From an uncultured Geobacter sp. (GTDB lineage: Bacteria; Desulfobacterota; Desulfuromonadia; Geobacterales; CAIOGM01), in contig CAIUWK010000068.1 in assembly GCA_903902855.1 (NCBI GenBank), positions 3,363-67,362 on the forward strand: a stretch of 64,000 nucleotides of DNA, read 5' to 3'. Positions 5,884 through 63,372 of this stretch are shown here, piece by piece. A program made the translations under genes and the position numbers. The notes below the pieces were generated by a model. That model ran no database searches, was not told the origin of the DNA, and saw only the letters and a list, made by a program, of their open reading frames with translations. How positions within the stretch are numbered: the first letter of the stretch is position 1; every line of letters starts with the position of its first letter.

Positions 5884-6274
5884 CTGGTCCAGGCGGTTCG
5901 TGTAAGGGCGGTTCGTGTAAGGGCGGTTCGCGAACCGCCCCTACCTCTGTCGGCATTCCTGCAGCGCCTTCAACAGCGCCTCGTTGTCCGAGTAGAGGTT
6001 GTCCACCGTCTGTTTCTGCACCGTGATCGTCTCCCCGCCGGGAATCACTACCGCCGAGGGCGAGGCGCACCCGGTCATGCTGAGCAGCGACAACAGCATC
6101 AACCCCGTGACCATCATTAACGGCGAGCCGCTCCCGTTCGGCCTGGACATACATCGAGACTTCTTCATCTGCTTGCTCCTCCGCCCGTTGGGGCTTGGCC
6201 TTCACCCACGCTCCCAGGATGATGCTCAAAAGTCCCAACAATGCCGTAATCGCGGCGATGATCCCGGCAGCCAT
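5870..6274 (-). CDS. putative i-spanin (Rz-like)
   Basis: N-terminal transmembrane (TM) helix AAGIIAAITALLGLLSIILGAW, then a charged region. Start overlaps the holin stop (TGATG). Contains the o-spanin ORF in another frame. The tail reads through a REP cluster. Confidence 0.45.
   Translation of the reverse strand: MAAGIIAAITALLGLLSIILGAWVKAKPQRAEEQADEEVSMYVQAERERLAVNDGHGVDAVVAAQHDRVRLALGGSDSRRGDDHGAETDGGQPLLGQRGAVEGAAGMPTEVGAVREPPLHEPPLHEPPGPDARG
5891..5944. repeat. REP cluster (two half-units plus one full palindrome)
   Basis: aggcggttcgtgta, agggcggttcgtgta, agggcggttcgcgaaccgcccctac. Confidence 0.9.
5941..6168 (-). CDS. putative o-spanin lipoprotein (Rz1-like), embedded
   Basis: Lipobox LSMTG-C after a hydrophobic signal. 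Short ~41-aa mature part with a Cys near the C-terminus. Lies entirely inside the i-spanin ORF in a different frame. Confidence 0.6.
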   Translation of the reverse strand: MKKSRCMSRPNGSGSPLMMVTGLMLLSLLSMTGCASPSAVVIPGGETITVQKQTVDNLYSDNEALLKALQECRQR

Positions 6275-8096: not shown

Positions 8097-8341
8097 GGTG
8101 GTTCTCCTTATCTTTTCGAAGTTGGCACTTTCGAAGGTGCCGGGTGGTTCGAAACCGTGATAAGGAACGGCACAGGGCTTTCCCCTTTCGGGTATTGTAT
8201 AGCCCTGTCCACCCGACAGTCCTTTCATACTGTGGGCGCAAAAATACCGCAAATCGGTGCGGGTCCGCCTTATCACTCGTGGTTTCGACGCCACTTGTGC
8301 CGACGGTACCGCAAATTTACCTTGTGCGTCAATAACTTTTC

Positions 8342-8638: not shown

Positions 8639-9129
8639 TTATCCCCCATCTTCTTCAATGATTCGATGACATTCGATTTCTCCGCCACGGAGCACCAGGG
8701 GAGAGCATCAAGCCCGGTTTGACGTTTGACGAAGGCCAGCATCGCCGTTGTTGAAGGATCACGGACGATCCCGCAATCATACAACGAGAGCCACATCGCC
8801 CGAATCTTCAGATCCTGCGGTTCATTGCCCACCCGGGGGGATTCACCCTGTAGGGGCGGTTCGCGTAAGGGCGGTTCGCGAACCGCCCCTACAGGACCCG
8901 CCCCGACGGTTTTCGCCCCGACAAGAACAAACCCCTTACGCTGCAATTCCTCGATCAACGCCCCGGCCTGATTGAAGGTCAACTCCTTGCAGCTCTTCGC
9001 CTTGAATCGCTCCTGGAGCATGGTCCGGTAGTCATCATCCGTAATACCCAATTTCCCCTGAGCCATCTTGATCACGGAGATCTGCCCCTTGGTGATAGTC
9101 GACTTGGCGGCGCTCTTATAGTAACTCAT
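8635..9129 (-). CDS. GemA / Mu gp16-like protein (DUF1018) carrying an in-frame REP insertion
   Basis: ISVIKMAQGKLGITDDDYRTMLQERFKAKSCKELTFNQAGALIEELQRKGF is GemA-like. The central VGAGPVGAVREPPLREPPLQGES is encoded by the REP at 8850-8892. Confidence 0.65.
   Translation of the reverse strand: MSYYKSAAKSTITKGQISVIKMAQGKLGITDDDYRTMLQERFKAKSCKELTFNQAGALIEELQRKGFVLVGAKTVGAGPVGAVREPPLREPPLQGESPRVGNEPQDLKIRAMWLSLYDCGIVRDPSTTAMLAFVKRQTGLDALPWCSVAEKSNVIESLKKMGDK
8850..8892. repeat. REP element inside the GemA-like ORF
   Basis: gtaggggcggttcgcgtaagggcggttcgcgaaccgcccctac. Confidence 0.9.
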
Positions 9130-9902
9130 TCCATGGACCTCACTAACTCTCGTAACCGTTCCCGGTTGGCCGCTCGCTCTTCACTGCTGATCTCATTATC
9201 CAACGCCTTTTGCGGCTTGCGTATGGGCATCAACTCCACCAGTTGCGCTGGACCCGGCCACTTGCGCGACTTGGTGAAGAGTTGCCGGAAGGCCGCGGCG
9301 ATCCGGGGCGCGTCCAGATCTTGCACGCTGGCTTTCGGCCTGATCGCCTGCTCCCAGATATCGGCGGTTTTGGTGATGGTATCCGCCGCCGGAGAGTTCT
9401 CCAGGCGCAACGCCAGCAGACCGGCCAGACCGGAAGCAACGGCGATCCTGACCCAATCCCCGCAATGCCACCCATCCAGGCTGTTAATGGCGGCATCGGT
9501 CTTGGAACTGGAAGCTGTTGAACAGTTGAATTGTTGAGGTGTTGAATTGTTCAATCGATTCAACGATTCAACATTTCCACGATTCAACAGCACTTTCTTC
9601 AGGTAATTATGGTTTTTCAGCGGCGCGCCCCCTTTACCCCGGAGCGCCTCCACCGTCTCGGCCATGGCCTCATTCAACGCGCCGCTCCCTGCTCCCTGCT
9701 CGCCGATCGCCAACACCTCCACCGTCAACCGTGTCATCCGGTCCCACGCCAGGGCGCGTTTCTCCGACCGAAACAGCGACAGATAGGCGAACAGAGACGG
9801 CGGAAACTCCCCTTTCATCCCGATCAACCGCCGGGCTTCCTCATCCTGGATGACCGCCTCTATGGAAAACTGCGCATGACAGCACGGGCAATGGAGCATC
9901 AT
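9126..9902 (-). CDS. phage early protein, N-terminal CPCC zinc-finger-like, unknown function
   Basis: 258 aa. Coding-like composition. Contains the in-frame low-complexity stretch NRGNVESLNRLNNSTPQQFNCST, encoded by the TTCAAC repeat array. Confidence 0.5.
   Translation of the reverse strand: MMLHCPCCHAQFSIEAVIQDEEARRLIGMKGEFPPSLFAYLSLFRSEKRALAWDRMTRLTVEVLAIGEQGAGSGALNEAMAETVEALRGKGGAPLKNHNYLKKVLLNRGNVESLNRLNNSTPQQFNCSTASSSKTDAAINSLDGWHCGDWVRIAVASGLAGLLALRLENSPAADTITKTADIWEQAIRPKASVQDLDAPRIAAAFRQLFTKSRKWPGPAQLVELMPIRKPQKALDNEISSEERAANRERLRELVRSME
9514..9591. repeat. inverted 7-8-nt arrays (GTTGAA... / ...TTCAAC) inside an ORF
   Basis: gttgaacagttgaattgttgaggtgttgaattgttcaatcgattcaacgattcaacatttccacgattcaacagc. 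Confidence 0.85.
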
Positions 9903-10738: not shown

Positions 10739-10767
10739 TCAACATTCAACAACAATTCAACGATTCA
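10739..10767. repeat. 7-nt array TTCAAC type
   Basis: caacattcaacaacaattcaacgattca. Confidence 0.8.
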
Positions 10768-12727: not shown

Positions 12728-13268
12728 GGCTCATACTCCTCTCGGTTAGCAGCGGATTCGGTTCCAGCATCCCTTTCAAAAAAGAATGGGGCACAAAGGG
12801 GGGCGGGTTGGTCTGCGGGCCATTCAGCCACTTGGACTGTTTGCGACCGCACGGGCCGCACATCCGGCTGTGACTGTAATACACATGCTTCCCCGTACAA
12901 CCTTCCACACAGCAATCATTGGTCGGGCGCGGGTTTGTAAGCTGCCTCTTCCCCGTATTCCCGCGGGTTACGGCCACCCCCCGCACACTCTCCAGCGGGA
13001 TATCCCGATACCTGGCAAAGTACGTCTCTGCCTGACGTGCCACCCGCCAGCCGCAGATATCACACTTGATTTCATCCTCCACGGCATACCCGGCCCCGTC
13101 GCTGATCATGGTGACGGTATCCCGCCGCAACGGTCCGGAACACTTGGGGCAAACCGGCTTTTTCAATTGAGAATTGACAGTTGATAATTGACAATTGGGG
13201 GTCAATTGTCCCTTGTCCATTGTCAATTGTGCATTGCCGTTCTTGTCCATTGTCACTTGCTGTGTCAT
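12708..13268 (-). CDS. Cys-rich phage early protein (186 aa), unknown
   Basis: GAGAGGGG SD. Several CxxC pairs (CPKC, CDIC, CGPC). The N-terminal MDKNGNAQLTMDKGQLTPNCQLSTVNSQL is encoded by the AATTGAC repeat array. Confidence 0.45.
   Translation of the reverse strand: MTQQVTMDKNGNAQLTMDKGQLTPNCQLSTVNSQLKKPVCPKCSGPLRRDTVTMISDGAGYAVEDEIKCDICGWRVARQAETYFARYRDIPLESVRGVAVTRGNTGKRQLTNPRPTNDCCVEGCTGKHVYYSHSRMCGPCGRKQSKWLNGPQTNPPPFVPHSFLKGMLEPNPLLTERSMSHVASNY
13164..13256. repeat. inverted 7-nt arrays (AATTGAC / GTCAATT type) inside an ORF
   Basis: caattgagaattgacagttgataattgacaattggggg tcaattgtcccttgtccattgtcaattgtgcattg. Confidence 0.85.
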
Positions 13269-13344: not shown

Positions 13345-13370
13345 TTCACCATTCACCATTCACCATTCAC
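13345..13370. repeat. 7-nt array TTCACCA x3-4
   Basis: ttcaccattcaccattcaccattcac. Confidence 0.9.
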
Positions 13371-13374
13371 GCCT

Positions 13375-14610
13375 TTAAATTGCCCCTACCACTTCCGCCG
13401 TCACCTTCGCCTCCCCCAATTCGCACGCCAGATTCATCGCCCGGGTAGCGTACAGATTCACCGTCAGCGGATACGCCGTGGAAACACTCCGTCCCCGCTC
13501 CCCGGCCACCGTCAGCCGCCGCTGCAACAACGTCATCGCCTCCTCATCAAAGATTGTTTCCACCTTGCCACCCACCAGCCGGATCTTGTGTTCCAGGTAT
13601 TCCCGACAGTTGGTCATCCCGTCGATCCGCGCCACCTGACAGCGCCGGATCACCTCCCGCATCTCCGGATGGAACCGTTCATCCAGCAGATCCCCCAGCT
13701 CCGTTTGACCGATGAGGATGATGCTGATCAGCTTCCGGTACCCCGTGGTGTCCTCCAGCTCGTAGATCTGTTTCAGCGTCTTGAAGGCCGCCACATTCAG
13801 CCGGTGAGCCTCTTCGATGATCAGGCAGCAGCGCGTCCCCTGTTGACTCCGTTCCAGCAGCAGCCGCTTCACCTGCCGGGCCTTGTGCTCGTGCTTCACC
13901 CGCGGCTTCTCGCTGCTGATATCCATGATGATGGCGTCACACAACGATGCCGACGTGATCTTGTCCTTGTCCAGGATCTCCGGATAGACCACCTGAATAT
14001 CCCCTTCCCGCCGGAGCTGCTCCACCACCAGCTTCCGCATGGTGCTCTTGCCGCTCCCCACTTCCCCCACCACGGACAGAAAGCCGCTGTGCATGGCCGA
14101 ATCCATCATGGCCGCCTCGATATAGCGGTGATCATCATCCTTGTAAATGTCCGACGCCTTCTGCACATCGTTGATAAACGGCGACCGAAACAGCTTAAAA
14201 TGCTTCATTGCCCTGGGGTCCAGCATCTCCACCACCTCCACACTCTCTATTTTTTCCGGATCTCCCGGTTGCATCGCCCGTACCGTAGGCGCCCGATGAT
14301 CATGACACCCCACGGGATGAACCCTGTGCCGTGCTTCATCGGCCTTGTTCCAGATATCGACAATCTTCAGATGACGCTCCGTCAGCCACGCCGTCACCTC
14401 GGCGTTTTCGGCAAGAACACTCTGCAATTTTTCCTTGAAACCGCGAATGCTGGGGGGGATTACCCCCCGGTTAACGCAGAGGTTAATAGTTGCCCGGGAA
14501 ACCCCCATCGCATCGGCGATACTCTTTTGCAGAATGGCGCACTCCAGGATCAGGTGTTTCAGGATGATCGGCGCAATCTCCAGATCATAGACTTTCGTAT
14601 GGTGTGTCAT
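13375..14610 (-). CDS. MuB-like AAA+ transposition helper ATPase (ExeA/TniB-like) with N-terminal HTH
   Basis: Walker A GEVGSGKST and Walker B CCLIIEEAH. N-terminal HTH ADAMGVSRATINLCV. Start overlaps the transposase stop by 4 nt (14607-14610). Confidence 0.8.
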   Translation of the reverse strand: MTHHTKVYDLEIAPIILKHLILECAILQKSIADAMGVSRATINLCVNRGVIPPSIRGFKEKLQSVLAENAEVTAWLTERHLKIVDIWNKADEARHRVHPVGCHDHRAPTVRAMQPGDPEKIESVEVVEMLDPRAMKHFKLFRSPFINDVQKASDIYKDDDHRYIEAAMMDSAMHSGFLSVVGEVGSGKSTMRKLVVEQLRREGDIQVVYPEILDKDKITSASLCDAIIMDISSEKPRVKHEHKARQVKRLLLERSQQGTRCCLIIEEAHRLNVAAFKTLKQIYELEDTTGYRKLISIILIGQTELGDLLDERFHPEMREVIRRCQVARIDGMTNCREYLEHKIRLVGGKVETIFDEEAMTLLQRRLTVAGERGRSVSTAYPLTVNLYATRAMNLACELGEAKVTAEVVGAI

Positions 14611-16381: not shown

Positions 16382-16431
16382 ATAAACCTTAAACCTTGAA
16401 CCTTTAGCCTTCAGCCTTCAGCCTTTAACCT
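16382..16431. repeat. 7-nt array TTNANCC x7
   Basis: ataaacc ttaaacc ttgaacc tttagcc ttcagcc ttcagcc tttaacc. Confidence 0.9.
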
Positions 16432-17347
16432 GCATGTGTTCTTTCTCCCACTGCTCAAACTCCTCCATCACCTGGGGATTGAGGCCCGGTCCGCCGATAT
16501 CCATGACGGCGCGATCCTGCCAGGCGTTGGCCGTCATCCGCATGTAATCCAGGGTAGAGATCAGCGCCGCCGCTTCCCGTGGCGTATGGTCCCGGTTGGC
16601 CAGCTCCTCAAAGGCGCTTTCCATCTTGAGCATGTAGCCGTCAAAGCCGACCCGCAGGGTAAAGACCTTGTTCAGATAGCCGTCTTCCTCGCCGGTCATC
16701 CCCTTGACGGCGGCGCGTCCTTCCAGCTTGTCCACCTGCTGCTGGAGCTTCTGCACCTCCTTGTGGGTAGCGGTCTGCACCCGGTCAAAGGCTTTCTTTT
16801 GGGCGACGACTTCCGCCTTCGTTTTGGCCTGCTCCTCGATAATCGTTTCGATGGCCGCCTGCAGATCTTCCCGGTGGTCCGAGTCCAGAGGAATCCGTTC
16901 CCCGCCGATCTCCACCGCCTCGGCGTCGATGATCAGGACGCCGTCATGGGTGAGGAGCCGTAGCTTACGAATATCTTTGTGGCTTAGTGAAAACTGGTGG
17001 CACGTATCCAAAAATTGAGGACCTAACACATCGAGTTGCCGCAGGCGTTCATCAGTCGTATGACGATCTAAACCAATGTAATCACAAAATTTTTCCCAAG
17101 TTCCGATAGTCGGAAGGTCGCGGTATATCTTTGTCTCCTTCAACTTTTGCAACTGCACTAAACTGGCGACAGTCACCACTTTTTCAACGAAAGTGAATGC
17201 CTGAATCCGTCCAGCAAACTCGTGGGCCTCGGCAATGCGTGACTGCTTGCACTTCAGCTCCGCGATCTCCAGATCTGCCTGCTCCCGGGCGATACTGGCG
17301 ATGGAATTGACCGTATCCACCTCTGACTCCATCCCTTTTCTACTCAT
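16418..17347 (-). CDS. phage early protein (309 aa), coiled-coil, unknown
   Basis: ORF-track ORF between the Ner-like gene and the transposase. Its last codons run into a TTNANCC repeat array. Confidence 0.5.
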   Translation of the reverse strand: MSRKGMESEVDTVNSIASIAREQADLEIAELKCKQSRIAEAHEFAGRIQAFTFVEKVVTVASLVQLQKLKETKIYRDLPTIGTWEKFCDYIGLDRHTTDERLRQLDVLGPQFLDTCHQFSLSHKDIRKLRLLTHDGVLIIDAEAVEIGGERIPLDSDHREDLQAAIETIIEEQAKTKAEVVAQKKAFDRVQTATHKEVQKLQQQVDKLEGRAAVKGMTGEEDGYLNKVFTLRVGFDGYMLKMESAFEELANRDHTPREAAALISTLDYMRMTANAWQDRAVMDIGGPGLNPQVMEEFEQWEKEHMQVKG

Positions 17348-17673: not shown

Positions 17674-17703
17674 TTCAACCTAGAACCTTGAACCTTGAAC
17701 CTG
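17674..17703. repeat. 7-nt array TTGAACC type
   Basis: ttcaacc tagaacc ttgaacc ttgaacc. Confidence 0.9.
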
Positions 17704-17705
17704 TT

Positions 17706-18140
17706 TCACCTTATTCCAACCTTTCCCCTCAGCCCCGCAATCTCCAGATCCAGCTTCCGCTTCTGCTCTTCCAGCCGCGCCAGCCGGAACAGATCCCGGT
17801 CCTCCGGTCCCACCACCTCGCCGCCCAGGGGGTCAAGCAGATAATGAAACGGCTGCAACGAACCCACCACCCGGCACAGCGCCGGCAGAGCCTCGGCCCG
17901 CAACGCATGCGCCAGATCACTCCCCGTATACTTGTCAAGGGTGTCCTTGCTCAGGTCCCGCCGTTGCAGCCGGCTGATCTCCGCCGCCACCTGATACCGG
18001 TCCTTGCCGCTCTGGCTGATGGAGCGACTCAAACATTGACGAAAGCCCAGGGCGATATCCATGGAACCTTCCGTATCGGTGTCGAACAAAGCCTGTTGAC
18101 TGGACAGCAAACTGTCTTTACTACTGCGGACTTTCGACAT
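17706..18140 (-). CDS. phage early protein (144 aa), unknown
   Basis: ATG at 18140 with an AAGAGG SD. The 210-aa track form would overlap the Ner-like gene. Confidence 0.45.
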   Translation of the reverse strand: MSKVRSSKDSLLSSQQALFDTDTEGSMDIALGFRQCLSRSISQSGKDRYQVAAEISRLQRRDLSKDTLDKYTGSDLAHALRAEALPALCRVVGSLQPFHYLLDPLGGEVVGPEDRDLFRLARLEEQKRKLDLEIAGLRGKVGIR

Positions 18141-22055: not shown

Positions 22056-22098
22056 TATATGGGTCGCCTTTATTGACCTTGCAGAGTTTTTCTAATAG

Positions 22099-22123
22099 TC
22101 TTCAGCCTTCAACCTATCAACCT
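22099..22123. repeat. 7-8-nt array TTCAGCC/TTCAACC type
   Basis: tcttcagccttcaacctatcaacc. Confidence 0.75.
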
Positions 22124-22155
22124 GAGTAGTTACTTCTGCTTGCTCTCCCGGATGC

Positions 22156-26387: not shown

Positions 26388-26450
26388 ACCCTTCACTTTT
26401 CACCATTCACTTTTCACCATTCACCCTTCACAATTCACAATTTACAATGT
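26388..26450. repeat. 7-nt array (CCCTTCA/CTTTTCA/CCATTCA) x9
   Basis: cccttca cttttca ccattca cttttca ccattca cccttca caattca caattta caatgta. Confidence 0.9.
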
Positions 26451-27313
26451 ACCCCTATTCTGCCGCAGAGGTCATCCACGAACTGGCGGGCCGCACGACC
26501 CGAGCGATGCCCCCGCTGGGTAGCCCACCGGAGCGCGGAGAGGCGCAGGGTCTCCGGTGCCACCTTCACCCCGGCCTGAGCCGCATACCCCGCCACGATG
26601 GCCAGATACGTCTCCTGATCAAAGGGGTAGAAGCTGAGCTGCAGCCCGAAGCGGTCAGCCAGAGAGAGCCGGTCGGAGATCGCCTCTTCCGGGTGAATCT
26701 CTTCCCCCCGGGTATCCGCCGTCTGCTCCGGCATGAGGTGGCGCCGGTTGGAGGTGGCATAAATGAGGGTATTGGCGGGGCGTTCCTCCAGACCACCGTC
26801 CAGGAGGGACTTGAGCTCCTGGTACGAGGCGTCCCCCTGGGCAAAGGAGAGGTCATCGCAGAAGACGATGAAACGCCGGGGGTCATCCCGGAGGAGTTCC
26901 AACAGTTGCGGCAGGGTGGAGAGATCGGAACGCTCCACCTCAACGAGGCGCAACCCCCGTTCAGCGAACCGCTTGAGCAGACCCTTCACGCAGGAGGATT
27001 TGCCGGTCCCCCGCTCACCCCAGAGAAGGACGTTGTTGGCCGGGAATCCCGCCACGAACTGCTCCGTGTTCCGGAGCAGATCATCCAGCGAAGAGTCGAT
27101 CCCCACCAGATCATTCAGCTCCACCAGATGGGGATGGCGCACCGGTGTGAGCACTCCCCCCCTCCCCCGCCGTTCCCAGCGGAAGGCGATCCATTGGGCA
27201 AAACAGGCGGGGTCGAAGTGAGTCGCCGGCTGGAACACCTCCAGCAACCCCTCAGCCCGGGCCAGTAGCGACTCCAGCCGCTCTGCCACGTTCTCCCACG
27301 ATTTTTCGGCCAT
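26435..27313 (-). CDS. DUF815-family AAA ATPase
   Basis: 292 aa. Walker A GERGTGKSS and Walker B FIVFCDDLSF. Confidence 0.7.
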   Translation of the reverse strand: MAEKSWENVAERLESLLARAEGLLEVFQPATHFDPACFAQWIAFRWERRGRGGVLTPVRHPHLVELNDLVGIDSSLDDLLRNTEQFVAGFPANNVLLWGERGTGKSSCVKGLLKRFAERGLRLVEVERSDLSTLPQLLELLRDDPRRFIVFCDDLSFAQGDASYQELKSLLDGGLEERPANTLIYATSNRRHLMPEQTADTRGEEIHPEEAISDRLSLADRFGLQLSFYPFDQETYLAIVAGYAAQAGVKVAPETLRLSALRWATQRGHRSGRAARQFVDDLCGRIGVHCKL

Positions 27314-39966: not shown

Positions 39967-40404
39967 ATGGAGAAGAACCGGATCGAAATCGATATCAAGA
40001 TTCCGAATCAGACCCGGTATCTGCGCCTCATCGGCAAGATCGGAGAAGAGTTGGCCATCGGGCTGGACGAGTACGCGGGGAATCGGAATACCCTGGCGTA
40101 CTACATCAACCTGGTGCTCACCGAATCGGTGATCAATACCATAACCCATGCCAATGCCTGCGACCCGAACAAGATCGTGCACCTCAGCATCGGTATCGAA
40201 CAGGATGATCTCGTAATCAGGGTTTTTGACGAGGGAAAGGGGTTCGATATCAACGAGGTGCCCCCTCCGGATTTTGAAGACCTGGCGGAGGGAGGACGGG
40301 GGGTCTTCCTCATCCGCTCCATCATGGATTCGGTGAACTACCGAAAAAAAGGGTCCGAAAACGTGCTGGAGATGAGGAAGAGTCTGGTAAAAGGTGAGAA
40401 GTGA
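39967..40404 (+). CDS. RsbW/SpoIIAB-like anti-sigma Ser kinase (HATPase_c)
   Basis: 145 aa. N-box ESVINTITHA and G-box DEGKGF...GGRGVFLI. Confidence 0.75.
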   Translation: MEKNRIEIDIKIPNQTRYLRLIGKIGEELAIGLDEYAGNRNTLAYYINLVLTESVINTITHANACDPNKIVHLSIGIEQDDLVIRVFDEGKGFDINEVPPPDFEDLAEGGRGVFLIRSIMDSVNYRKKGSENVLEMRKSLVKGEK

Positions 40405-40590
40405 AAGGCTGACTGAAGGTGAATGGTGAATAGCAGGAAGTGAATGGTGAATAGTGAATGGTGAAAAGTGCAACGGCACGAGAGGCTCTTTTCACCATTC
40501 ACGTTTCACCATTCACGTTTTAGACGTTTCACCATTCACCATTCACCATTCACCATTCACATGTTAGACGTTTCACCGTTGACGTTTCTC
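40395..40590. repeat. large inverted pair of TTCACCA-type arrays forming a long imperfect hairpin between convergent genes
   Basis: gtgaatggtgaatag...gtgaatggtgaaaagtg, a ~20-nt loop, then ttttcaccattcacgtttcaccattcacg...ttcaccattcaccattcaccattcac. Confidence 0.9.
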
Positions 40591-41349
40591 AGTAATAAGC
40601 ACCATCGTTACCCCGAGGATGAACATGGGGAGGCTCAGGAGTTGCCCCATGGAGAGGGAGCCGAAGAGGAGGCCGATCTGGGCGTCCGGCTCCCGGAACA
40701 GCTCCACGAAGGAGCGGAACAGACCGTACCCGGCGATAAAGCTCCAGAAGACGACACCGTCGGGAGGATTCCTTCGCGAGGTGAGCCAGAGAATGAGGAG
40801 CAGGAGCGGTCCCTCCAGGAGCGCCTCGTAGAGTTGCGAAGGATGCCGGGGAGAAGGACCGCCGCCGGGGAAGATCATCCCCCAGCGGACCGTGGTGGTT
40901 CTGCCGTAGAGCTCCCCGTTGATGAAGTTGCCGATCCTACCGAAGAAGAGCCCCACCGGTCCCGCCATGAAGCCGATATCCGCCATCCGGAAGAAGGGGA
41001 TTTTTTTCTTCCGGGCATACAGCACCCCCCCGATGATGGCTCCGGTTACCCCGCCGTGAAACGACATCCCCCCTTCCCAGATGGCAATGGCCTTCAGGGG
41101 ATGCTCCAGATAAAATGAAAAGTTATAAAAAAGGACATACCCCAGCCGTCCCCCCAGGATAATCCCCAGGGCCACGGTGAAGATCAGATCGGCCACGTCA
41201 TCCCGGGTGAGGGGGAGGTTGCGCCGCTTTACCCCGGCGGAGATGATGAAATACGCTGAGACGAAACCTAGAATGTACATGAGCCCATACCAACGGAACG
41301 CCAGGGGACCGATCTGGAGGAATATGGGGTCGATTTCAGGGAACTGCAT
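40573..41349 (-). CDS. lgt: prolipoprotein diacylglyceryl transferase
   Basis: 258 aa. IGPLAFRWYGLMYILGF ... GRIGNFINGELYGR are typical Lgt motifs. Confidence 0.85.
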   Translation of the reverse strand: MQFPEIDPIFLQIGPLAFRWYGLMYILGFVSAYFIISAGVKRRNLPLTRDDVADLIFTVALGIILGGRLGYVLFYNFSFYLEHPLKAIAIWEGGMSFHGGVTGAIIGGVLYARKKKIPFFRMADIGFMAGPVGLFFGRIGNFINGELYGRTTTVRWGMIFPGGGPSPRHPSQLYEALLEGPLLLLILWLTSRRNPPDGVVFWSFIAGYGLFRSFVELFREPDAQIGLLFGSLSMGQLLSLPMFILGVTMVLITEKRQR

Positions 41350-43755: not shown

Positions 43756-43790
43756 CTGTCATTTCGACCAACAAGAGAAATCTTGTAACT

Positions 43791-43815
43791 GTTAGCCTTC
43801 AGCCTTCAGTCTTAA
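43791..43815. repeat. 7-nt array TTCAGCC type
   Basis: gttagcc ttcagcc ttcagtc ttaatac. Confidence 0.8.
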
Positions 43816-43821
43816 TACGAG

Positions 43822-43864
43822 AAACGGCCTCCCCTGAATAGTGGGGGAGGCCGTTTTGCTTTTC
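43822..43864. terminator. bidirectional intrinsic terminator between the ParA-like gene and glgC
   Basis: acggcctcccc / ggggaggccgt 11-bp stem, with an A-run upstream and a T-run downstream. Confidence 0.8.
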
Positions 43865-43890
43865 ATACCGGATTATTTTTGTCGTCAGGA

Positions 43891-52053: not shown

Positions 52054-52080
52054 TCGAACAGCTGCCCCCCCTCACCCTAA

Positions 52081-52103
52081 CCCTCCCCCACCAAGGGGGA
52101 GGG
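52081..52103 (+). terminator. hairpin after the LivK-like gene
   Basis: ccctccccc-accaa-gggggaggg 9-bp stem. Weak T-tract. Confidence 0.45.
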
Positions 52104-52121
52104 AACTTTGTAACGTAACTA

Positions 52122-52330
52122 TTCAGCTCAATGCAGATGCGCGACTATCGTAACCGCTCTTGTCCTCCCCCCTTCGGCTCCCTTCGACTTCGCTCAGGGC
52201 AGGTCGCTCAGGGCAGGCTTAGCCCAAGGGGAGGGAGTTTATACGAATTCCGTTGGTAGAACGTTCCCCCTCTTGAGACAAGAGGGGGACAGGGGGAGTT
52301 ATGATGACAAGGTTGCAGGTTAGCTGAAGT
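52122..52330 (+). repeat. structured intergenic repeat, copy A (with a ~50-nt internal insert)
   Basis: Aligns with 57866-58027: shared ttcagctcaatgcagatg...cccaaggggaggga...ccccctcttgagacaagaggggg...gggggagttatgatgac. Mini-ORF at 52301-52327. Confidence 0.85.
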
Positions 52331-52347
52331 AACACAGATACAAACGC

Positions 52348-52396
52348 TTCAACAGTTCAACGTTTCAACAGTTCAACGATTCAACGTTTCAACAGC
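52348..52396. repeat. 8-nt array TTCAACNN x6
   Basis: ttcaacag ttcaacgt ttcaacag ttcaacga ttcaacgt ttcaacag. Overlaps the EamA stop. Confidence 0.9.
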
Positions 52397-53277
52397 CTCC
52401 CCGGCAGCGAAACCAGGAGCACGCCACCCAGCACCAGGCTTCCTCCCACAAAGAACGAGAGACGTAACTGCTCCCCCAGGACGAGCCACCCCAGCAGGGA
52501 ACCGACCAGCGGCTGCAGAAAAAAGAAGACAGATCCGACCCCGGCCTCCACCAGCTGCATCCCCTTGTTCCAGAGGAAGAAGGCCCCGGCGGTGGAGATG
52601 ACCCCGATATAAAAGAGCGCCAGCCAGACCTCCGGCCGCTCCAGACCGCTCACCGGAAGATACTGCAGTTCGATGAGCATGGCCGGGGTGGTGAAGAGCC
52701 ACCCCCAGAAGATGGCGTAGGTGGTTATGACCAGCGGCGGATAGGTGGCGGCGGCCTTGCGAGCCAGAACGGAGAGGAGCGCCCAGGTGACTGCGGCCCC
52801 CACCAGGAAGAGATTGCCGGTCATGACCTCCCCTCCCCTGCTCCCCCCCTGGTCCCACCCCACGATGATCAGTACCCCCAGGGTGGCCAGGATAATGGAA
52901 AGGAGCTTGCGCGTGGTGATCCGCTCACCCAGCATGCTCCTGGCAAAGATGACGATAAAGGCCGGACTGGCGGCGGTGAGCACCGATCCCATATGAGCCG
53001 ATGAGAGCTTGGTGCCGATGAACTGACAGCCGATGGAGAGGAAGTACCCCACCACCCCGATGGTCATGAAGGTTTTCCAGTCACGGGAAAAGGGCTGTCT
53101 GAGACCGGTCCGGAGCAGCAGGAGCCAGAGGACGCTGAAGGCGATGAGGTAACGGAGCCAGACCAGGGTGAAGGGAGGGATGTAGTCAAGGAGAACCTTG
53201 CTGACCACGTAGAGCCCCCCCCAGATGGCGGCGGCTCCACTGAGGGCAAGGCAACCCGCCCAGTGCCGATTTTTCAT
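52381..53277 (-). CDS. EamA/DMT-family transporter
   Basis: ATG at 53277 (GAGGAG SD 10 nt upstream) gives a 298-aa polytopic protein. Confidence 0.75.
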   Translation of the reverse strand: MKNRHWAGCLALSGAAAIWGGLYVVSKVLLDYIPPFTLVWLRYLIAFSVLWLLLLRTGLRQPFSRDWKTFMTIGVVGYFLSIGCQFIGTKLSSAHMGSVLTAASPAFIVIFARSMLGERITTRKLLSIILATLGVLIIVGWDQGGSRGGEVMTGNLFLVGAAVTWALLSVLARKAAATYPPLVITTYAIFWGWLFTTPAMLIELQYLPVSGLERPEVWLALFYIGVISTAGAFFLWNKGMQLVEAGVGSVFFFLQPLVGSLLGWLVLGEQLRLSFFVGGSLVLGGVLLVSLPGRLLKR

Positions 53278-55254: not shown

Positions 55255-55312
55255 CCTTGCCCCACCGCGCGAACTCTCTTTTTATATCTGCACTTTCAGC
55301 GAGAATAGAGCC

Positions 55313-56813: not shown

Positions 56814-56827
56814 CTGCAGGAGAAGTC

Positions 56828-56880
56828 AACTTCACAACCTATGAACCGCAAAGACGCAAAGTACGCAAAGAAAAGCAAGG
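56828..56880. repeat. short-period array (TTCACAACC, then CGCAAAG x3)
   Basis: ttcacaacctatgaaccgcaaagacgcaaagtacgcaaagaaaagcaagg. Confidence 0.7.
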
Positions 56881-57771: not shown

Positions 57772-57865
57772 ACCTGAAAAAAATCAGTTAACCGCCGATA
57801 GACGCCGAAAAGTCAAAGAGTTGAGACTTATTTGAATCAGCCTGAAATATATGAATACGGATAAC

Positions 57866-58027
57866 TTCAGCTCAATGCAGATGTGCAACTATCGTAACCC
57901 CTCCTGTCCTCCCCTTAACCCAAGGGGAGGGACGTTTATGCGAATTCCGTTGGCAGAACGTTCCCCCTCTTGAGACAAGAGGGGGACAGGGGGAGTTATG
58001 ATGACCGGGTCGCAGAAGAGCTGAATT
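57866..58027 (+). repeat. structured intergenic repeat, copy B
   Basis: Same orientation as copy A. Two stable hairpins (gtcctcccctt/aaggggagggac and ccccctcttg/caagaggggg), then a GGGGGAG SD and mini-ORF at 57998-58024. Confidence 0.85.
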
Positions 58028-58060
58028 GTTTCCAGATTTTGAATGCGGAAAGGATCTATC

Positions 58061-63343: not shown

Positions 63344-63372
63344 CGGCTGAAGGCTGAAGACTGAAGGGTGAG
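63344..63372. repeat. 7-nt array GGCTGAA x3-4 (complement of the TTCAGCC type)
   Basis: ggctgaa ggctgaa gactgaa gggtgag, between convergent putA and DUF2917. Confidence 0.85.

Follow-up and report, generated by a model that had tools for sequence, protein, structure and literature searches.

The record of tandem heptanucleotide repeats lying between genes goes back to 1990 in cyanobacteria and was later extended to Xanthomonas, Geobacter and Beggiatoa; to our knowledge these repeats have no accepted function, and we know of no explanation for their 7-nt period. One such unit, that of the STRR heptamers of Calothrix PCC 7601, is CCCCAGT. Here we describe arrays of 7- and 8-nt units in the genome of an uncultured Geobacter sp., starting from a window of 64,000 nt (the whole stretch analysed; genome G000, contig C68, positions 3363-67362), in which a sequence-only reading had listed 16 such loci, the largest of them at 40395-40590 between a gene for an RsbW-like anti-sigma kinase and lgt. 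The arrays belong to a known intergenic heptanucleotide class with published members in Geobacter metallireducens, Xanthomonas and Nostoc, and are hypermutable hepta- and octanucleotide microsatellites of the long simple sequence repeat (long-SSR, 5-11-nt unit) class: gain and loss of units, turnover between species and a share carried by miniature inverted-repeat transposable elements (MITEs) are all observed. They are probably slippage-driven, partly MITE-borne repeat DNA that persists only where, and so oriented that, translation and transcription of the neighbouring genes are undisturbed.

The multicopy sequences of G. metallireducens include Gmet_H4 (GGGACCG x4, 49 copies) and paired "global regulator binding sites" of classes 1-3, which consist of tandem octa- or heptanucleotides such as TCTCCGTS x3, and whose binding by IHF/HU is a proposal of the same authors only (Aklujkar et al. 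2009, PMC2700814). The heptamers GGGAATC of Xanthomonas and GGGGA(C/T)T of Nostoc/Anabaena have the 5' side of their G-rich strand near an open reading frame (ORF), regardless of the direction of that ORF (Rehm et al. 2015, PMC4692102). A survey of long SSRs, as related in two later papers, found heptanucleotides to be the commonest in many bacteria and proposed polymerase slippage, not a physiological role (Mrazek, Guo and Shah 2007 via PMC4679880, PMC4692102). The Calothrix STRR heptamers are cited as cyanobacterial tandem repeats (PMC4692102), and the TAACTGA repeats of Beggiatoaceae are direct only and lie just upstream of start codons (MacGregor 2015, PMC4679880).

With G. metallireducens, a member of the same order, the present genome shares the units GGGACCG (38 arrays here, the ACCGGGG family, some of them intragenic) and TCTCCGTG x3 (TCTCCGTS-type; 20 arrays, always three copies, 15/20 with an inverted partner 100-170 nt apart). 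In both organisms GGGACCG arrays lie between genes and occasionally within them, three-copy TCTCCGTS arrays are paired on opposite strands at variable distance, and the published pyrimidine-rich consensus, drawn 3' on each strand, agrees with the polarity described below. Unit types are more numerous here (114), and the class 1 unit GTTGCTYN is not among the frequent ones; neither strain-level length variation nor a general polarity is reported in the G. metallireducens paper (PMC2700814). As in Xanthomonas and Nostoc, about 90% of arrays are intergenic, some overlap stop codons, and length and sequence vary among close relatives; inverted pairs are also present in Xanthomonas. Each of those genomes has one G-quadruplex-prone unit, whereas most units here are incapable of forming quadruplexes.

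Heptanucleotides dominate here as they do in the free-living bacteria of the long-SSR survey, and both marks of that class, tandem 5-11-nt units beyond chance and whole-unit polymorphism among close relatives, are found; inverted pairing, MITE association and polarity are not described in the survey as far as the later papers relate it. The STRR and TAACTGA repeats are likewise dispersed intergenic tandem heptamers of few unit types, and the STRR unit also occurs here (CCCCAGT/ACTGGGG, 14 arrays), although the host phyla are unrelated. Repetitive extragenic palindromes (REPs), bacterial interspersed mosaic elements (BIMEs) and MITEs resemble the arrays as small, non-coding, hairpin-forming and strain-variable spacer repeats. 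They differ in that 84% of the present arrays have no conserved flanks or core, and there is neither a GTAG head nor a fixed palindrome; what recurs is the unit, not an element. The sequence-only reading had set the arrays apart from CRISPR loci and from REPs, and on both counts it was right: the units stand head-to-tail with no spacers, and the arms are tandem units of 114 kinds. A CRISPR locus has 24-48-nt repeats with unique spacers of about their own length in between, and a REP is an imperfect but conserved palindrome, some 35 nt long and headed by a GTAG-type motif, that depends on a RAYT transposase.

Detection of the arrays

Genes were called in the assembly (3.56 Mb, 113 contigs, 57.8% G+C) with a purpose-made codon-usage model, giving 2973 genes (85% coding). 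Arrays were taken from Tandem Repeats Finder rows of periods 7 and 8 with at least 2.9 copies, and these rows were merged. The chance level of exact duplications was obtained from a Markov simulation of the 519 kb of intergenic DNA, and an inverted partner was defined as at least two reverse-complement units within 200 nt of an array. Strain alleles were compared at six loci, using contigs of other metagenomes that encode an identical flanking protein; when metagenome contigs were scanned for the exact flank sequence of the main locus, there were no matches. A unit-similarity network was dropped, since with 114 units the one-mutation neighbours span all heptamer space by chance.

Abundance and unit families

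The genome holds 449 merged arrays (unit length 7 nt in 360, 8 nt in 89), about one per 8 kb, with a median of 3.9 and a maximum of 20.9 copies. Rows of period 7 (n=369) are 86% intergenic and those of period 8 (n=91) 89%, compared with 15% of the genome; the family at gene boundaries is pervasive, as had been claimed, and real. Other non-triplet periods are rare among the rows. Within the window, 14 of the 16 listed loci were recovered by Tandem Repeats Finder, and those at 10739 and 22099 proved weaker. The first 18.4 kb of the window are a Mu-like prophage (terminase, portal, MuA-like and MuB-like genes), in which arrays are denser: it holds 10 of the 19 window arrays of at least three copies, the others lying in the host part, so that both prophage and host DNA carry them, as had been noted.

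Exact period-7 duplications in intergenic DNA number 401 against 25 simulated (16-fold), and exact runs of at least three copies 77 against none; at period 8 the corresponding counts are 90 against 5.4 and 12 against none. The excess falls to 1.9-fold at period 6 and 1.3-fold at period 5, and period-4 duplications in the same 519 kb show no excess over the simulation. Among relatives, the density of period-7 arrays per 100 kb is 8-12.7 in three genomes of the same genus, 2-7 in three of a second family and 0 in one of a third family.

Non-array flanks common to at least three other loci were found in 71/449 arrays (about 16%), and the rest are bare. The 71 are parts of MITE-like elements, of two kinds. 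Terminal inverted repeats, a conserved interior and dispersed copies, the hallmarks of MITEs, occur together only in the AGGCTGA/AGACTGA family, where 44/67 arrays share flanks; in its layout a 60-nt core has (AGGCTGA)n before it and (TCAGCCT)n after it, and the whole is bounded by the terminal repeat GTAACTACTCAGG and a second terminal repeat. Two octamer modules of constant sequence, CACGGAGA x3 and CGCAAAGA x3, are fixed at three copies and look like element ends, that is, terminal repeats of small mobile elements. Neighbouring arrays of different units often adjoin and intergrade (e.g. AGGTTCA to GGGTTCG), and such side-by-side graded units point to mutation of a unit followed by its expansion in place.

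The main locus and variation between strains and species

The largest array pair of the window and its neighbours are arranged as follows.

39967-40404, + strand: gene for the RsbW-like anti-sigma kinase (HATPase_c_2, 145 aa), whose TGA precedes the left arm
40395-40590: main locus, with a left arm of GGTGAAT-type units (40414-40465), a 24-nt spacer and a right arm of TTCACCA-type units (40490-40588)
40573-41349, - strand: lgt, whose stop codon is reached by the right arm

The left arm has about 7.6 units and the right arm about 10. Between strains with flanking DNA 97.4-99.97% identical, the spacer separating the two genes is 131 nt (four assemblies), 168 nt (two assemblies and the window), 219 nt (two) or 366 nt (one, with a scaffold gap) long; these alleles differ by single heptamers and by higher-order units of 22 and 35 nt, and the two arms vary independently of each other. 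Since the right arm overlaps the 3' end of lgt, repeat changes rewrite the C-terminal tail of Lgt, which is called as 258 or 261 aa depending on the allele, and the KGEK tail of the RsbW-like protein is encoded by the array where it runs over the stop codon. In the congener G001 the orthologous spacer has different units, GTTCAAT/GTTCTAG.

Whole-unit length differences among strains with identical flanking proteins were found at three of the six loci compared, in line with the earlier suggestion that the tracts are slippage-prone, and gain and loss of whole units is the product expected of slipped-strand mispairing. Apart from the main locus, these are the spacer between the DUF815 ATPase gene and comEC (54 vs 40 nt, exactly two heptamers, GTGAATGGTGAAAA) and the spacer 3' of the EamA gene (327 vs 304 nt, a difference of some three octamers). 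At the variable loci, which are found downstream of stop codons or in operon junctions, frames remain intact and the spacing of ribosome-binding site and start codon is unchanged. The array CGCAAAGA x3 (56847) is invariant in four other assemblies that have this DNA, the GGCTGAA array (63345) in three, and the prophage array at 16383 in two. In congeners (coding identity about 80-87%), orthologous spacers have another unit, a related unit in another copy number, or no array: the comEC junction of G002 carries 88 nt of TTCACCG units, and the AGCCTTC array at 43794 is missing from the G002 ortholog.

The possibility that the arrays are assembly artefacts, raised in the sequence-only reading as grounds for discarding them, can be set aside, because the same alleles recur in independent assemblies and arrays are present in complete genomes of relatives. 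In the congener G003 a contig break coincides exactly with the spacer that corresponds to the main array (end of contig C164 and start of C183 of that genome, at the orthologs of 40404 and 40573), suggesting that short-read assemblies are fragmented by long arrays. In the present genome, nine arrays are located at contig ends.

Position at gene boundaries

About 10% of spacers carry an array (co-directional 9.6%, convergent 11%, divergent 7.7%). In co-directional spacers with room for it, 68/291 arrays start within 5 nt of the upstream stop codon, 3.7-fold more than under random placement (18.6 +/- 4.0), and only 4 end within 5 nt of the next start. In 47 cases the array overruns the upstream stop codon, and the last residues of the protein are then array-encoded; arrays so placed would rewrite the last few residues as they change. 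Spacers with arrays have a median length of 140 nt and those without 36 nt, and array-free orthologous spacers are short: the spacer at 56814 is 76 nt here and 9 nt in G003, and that at 43756 is 135 nt here and 77 nt in G002. The arrays therefore look like additions to originally tight junctions, and the boundary position follows from that alone.

Inverted pairs and hairpins

An inverted partner lies within 200 nt of 183/449 arrays (41%), compared with 7-13 (2-3%) in composition-matched controls and with 29 that have extra direct copies. The sequence-only reading had tied such pairs to convergent genes, but they occur in all arrangements: the paired share is 46% in convergent, 41% in divergent and 37-54% in co-directional spacers.

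Long imperfect hairpins had been proposed for four pairs of the window, and the hairpins fold well as RNA. The main locus (40395-40600) folds into a single hairpin of -92.6 kcal/mol on the + strand (z -10.1; - strand -85.4), the pair at 1305-1418 reaches -60.3 kcal/mol (z -6.2) and that at 9510-9595 -38.2 kcal/mol (z -7.1), while 13160-13262 gives only -28 kcal/mol (z -2.5). Over 54 pairs the median is -46 kcal/mol, and hairpins of the TTCACCA family frequently have a common short loop, ..AAAAGCCTTTGATCTTTT..

These hairpins are not canonical terminators, one of the roles that had been suggested for them. Only 4/108 hairpin ends are followed by a T-rich tail (background 1.8%), so that the U-tail of intrinsic terminators is lacking, and the array at 43794 adjoins a separate terminator that is conserved in G002 without the array. 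No Rfam family matches any array; the sole Rfam match in the window is sRNA-Xcc1.

Polarity of the arrays

In 116/121 informative inverted pairs (96%) it is the purine-rich arm that comes 5', whichever strand is read, and the 5' arm has more G than C in 110 pairs and the reverse in three. Counted by unit family, purine-first order prevails by 30 to 4 (p = 6e-6); a version of the rule framed on stop codons is weaker (72/80 pairs, 14 vs 4 families). In 140/188 solo arrays (p = 1e-11) the purine-rich strand, read 5' to 3', points away from the gene closest to it, a share that rises to 80% when the array is at most 30 nt from the gene and is 77% beside starts and 73% beside stops. Arrays swallowed by ORF ends obey the same rule (16/18 at 3' ends, 7/8 at 5' ends), and samples of relatives show a like trend (14 vs 4). 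Stop codons are present in 54% and Shine-Dalgarno-like motifs in 49% of units read in the purine orientation, compared with 15% and 0% in the pyrimidine orientation.

Several candidate causes of this polarity were rejected. Solo arrays have no bias relative to the direction of transcription (83/151), nor does any appear per family, so that roles depending on a specific RNA sequence (e.g. Rho-loading sites, Shine-Dalgarno arrays) are not general. Agreement with the direction of replication is 116/231 by GC skew and 92/172 by gene-strand bias. In spacer DNA without arrays the same tendency amounts to no more than 1-3%, too weak to account for the effect, and polar growth does not fit either, as both array ends are equally degenerate (201 vs 167, p = 0.29). 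Quadruplex formation is not the cause, because units incapable of it (GGTGAAT, AGGCTGA, CAATTGA and others) follow the rule too. The published "5' side next to an ORF" polarity is thereby extended to quadruplex-incapable units, which narrows its possible causes.

Origin and meaning of the arrays

A 7- or 8-nt unit breaks reading frames, so that arrays would survive only between a stop codon and the next ribosome-binding site; there they would lengthen originally tiny spacers, which may be why they are found at gene boundaries. The polarity would reflect a filter for the harmless orientation: behind a gene end, the purine-rich orientation would often give stops in all three frames and expose no C-rich RNA to Rho, and before a start, the pyrimidine-rich orientation would be free of Shine-Dalgarno-like motifs and would have few start codons. 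The arrays would need no dedicated cellular function, and side effects of the long hairpins on mRNA ends are probable.

Several findings weigh against slippage-driven repeat DNA as the whole account. Pure local slippage fails to explain the spread of arrays without conserved flanks; a few families dominate, with the top 10 of the 114 unit types holding 51% of arrays; the GGGACCG and TCTCCGTG families are found in G. metallireducens as well, though single loci turn over fast; and half of the six loci compared are invariant among strains. In addition, units free of stop codons in either orientation are equally polar (24/32 beside stops, 18/23 beside starts), which rejects stop codons as the sole cause of polarity and makes the stop-codon part of the filter insufficient.

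The sequence-only reading had offered RNA-end protectors, protein-binding phased tracts and contingency tracts as further roles. The first would make the inverted arrays selected, REP-like RNA hairpins that block 3' exonucleases, are cut by RNase III or uncouple cistrons, with solo arrays as their decayed halves; it draws on the stable folds at the main locus and elsewhere, the excess of pairing over controls, the location directly behind stop codons and the purine-first order, which in both directions sets frame-independent stops before the stem, as ribosome-free folding needs. We nevertheless think it unlikely, for 59% of arrays have no partner, arm copy numbers are only weakly correlated genome-wide (r = 0.2) and the arms change independently of each other among strains, divergent (promoter) spacers have pairs about as often, loci are not conserved among congeners, and both U-tails and an Rfam family are lacking. 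Arrays of heptads or 8-bp boxes are bound by ribbon-helix-helix proteins such as omega of pSM19035 and MetJ. The arrays could accordingly be lattices for a protein that reads 7-8-nt steps, either on DNA (a ribbon-helix-helix protein, or a nucleoid protein, IHF/HU in the proposal of Aklujkar et al.) or on RNA (S1, cold-shock or CsrA-type proteins; MacGregor). Such a reading would suit the strain-invariant three-copy modules of constant sequence, the conservation of unit families across genera despite locus turnover, the presence of TTC/GAA in 54% of units (27% expected) and a polarity independent of transcription and replication; we regard it as distinctly improbable, given that 114 units with 3 to 21 copies are unlike the sites of one specific binder, that variable arrays alter their length freely and that the fixed modules resemble terminal repeats of small mobile elements.

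Contingency loci, in which unit changes would switch neighbouring genes on and off, seem very improbable. Unit number does vary among strains and some arrays overlap ORF ends, but the variable loci neither switch frames nor shift the ribosome-binding site, the rows are overwhelmingly intergenic, the neighbours are ordinary housekeeping genes (e.g. lgt, comEC, ABC transporters), and Rehm et al. likewise argued against such a role in Xanthomonas (PMC4692102). It is also conceivable, if quite doubtful, that purine-first polarity is the signature of a dedicated conserved process and not of a passive filter: either heptamer arrays are built or read by an enzyme or binding protein that is itself polar and proceeds from gene ends outward, or arrays are selected as two-way insulators that end translation in all frames, are invisible to Rho, fold away and uncouple neighbours. 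If so, the intergenic heptamer repeats of several phyla would share one mechanism.

To the described cases of this class, the genome adds a dense and quantified one, with its high frequency and the further enrichment in the Mu-like prophage, together with direct strain-level evidence for gain and loss of units. Annotators of such assemblies can trace variable C-terminal tails, stretched spacers and contig breaks to the arrays.

Other arrays and repeats in the window

The remaining listed loci, with units and copy numbers mostly from Tandem Repeats Finder, are given below.

12-52: CGTTCTA x2.6, then TTCACCC x3.4 (Tandem Repeats Finder)
1313-1411: inverted pair adjoining the prophage portal gene, GGGACCG x3.1 (1313-1334), a 53-nt spacer and CCGGTCC x3.4 (1388-1411)
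2816-2834: AGGTTCT x2.7 (Tandem Repeats Finder)
9516-9588: inverted octamer pair, TGTTGAAT x5 and TTCAACGA x4.8, within an open frame joining two phage gene families
10740-10765: weak, about three loose TTCAAC units at 8-11-nt spacing
13164-13259: CAATTGA x4.9 facing GTCCATT x5.1; the pair is imperfect and lies downstream of the MuB-like gene
13345-13370: TTCACCA x3.7 (100% matches); 4 nt separate its end from the stop codon of the MuB-like gene (13375-14610, - strand)
16383-16431: TAAACCT-type x7, overrunning the stop of the gene at 16418-17347 (- strand)
17677-17702: AACCTTG x3.7, 3 nt from the stop of the gene at 17706-18140 (- strand)
22060-22134: truncated copy of the AGGCTGA MITE (the locus listed at 22099) that retains the core's right part together with 2-3 heptamers and the terminal repeat CAACCTGAGTAGTTAC
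26388-26452: ACCATTC-type x7.9, filling the whole 54-nt spacer between the DUF815 ATPase gene and comEC (both - strand)
43794-43813: AGCCTTC x2.9, adjoining a separate classical terminator (GC-hairpin and T-run)
52348-52395: TTCAACAG-type octamers x6, supplying the last codons and the stop of the EamA gene (52381-53277, - strand)
56847-56871: CGCAAAGA x3, the fixed three-copy module, found at 8 further loci; it starts at 56847, not at 56828 as had been listed
63345-63371: GGCTGAA x3.9, filling the 32-nt spacer between convergent putA-like and DUF2917 genes

The array at 52348 encodes the RLLKR tail of the EamA protein. The open frame around the octamer pair at 9516-9588 (9126-9902, - strand, 258 aa) matches phrog_2161 at residues 1-135 and phrog_8159 at residues 149-257, and the pair (about residues 105-129) lies between both matches, overlapping the end of the first; this looks like an in-frame fusion of two phage genes through the repeat, or like an overlooked gene boundary. 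At the ortholog of the spacer 43756-43890, which here holds the AGCCTTC array and the terminator, the congener G003 (contig C108) has a 4.4-kb insertion.

Other repeats and spacers of the window stand apart from the 7-8-nt arrays. The 15-nt tandem units GGCGGTTCGTGTAAG and GTAAGGGCGGTTCGC of the prophage (5892-5930, 8850-8880) are GTAG-type REP palindromes, distinct from these arrays. A second repeat family, a GC-rich palindrome (..CCCCCTCTTGAGACAAGAGGGGG..) with conserved surroundings, fills the spacers 57772-58060 and 52054-52380. The former spacer is 289 nt long here and 10 nt in the congener G003, the spacer 55255-55312 (58 nt) corresponds to a 4-nt gene overlap in G002 and G003, and spacers here seem generally inflated relative to those of relatives.

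The sRNA-Xcc1 match (RF02221) is full-length and lies within the Mu-like prophage at 8131-8217 on the - strand (69.6 bits, gathering score 53). Over 64 kb, distant Mu-like phage contigs in IMG/VR, whose MuB is about 50% identical, have 15 arrays of period 7 or 8; their units (AATGCGG, AGTTCGG, GGAAGATG and others) are unlike those of the present host.

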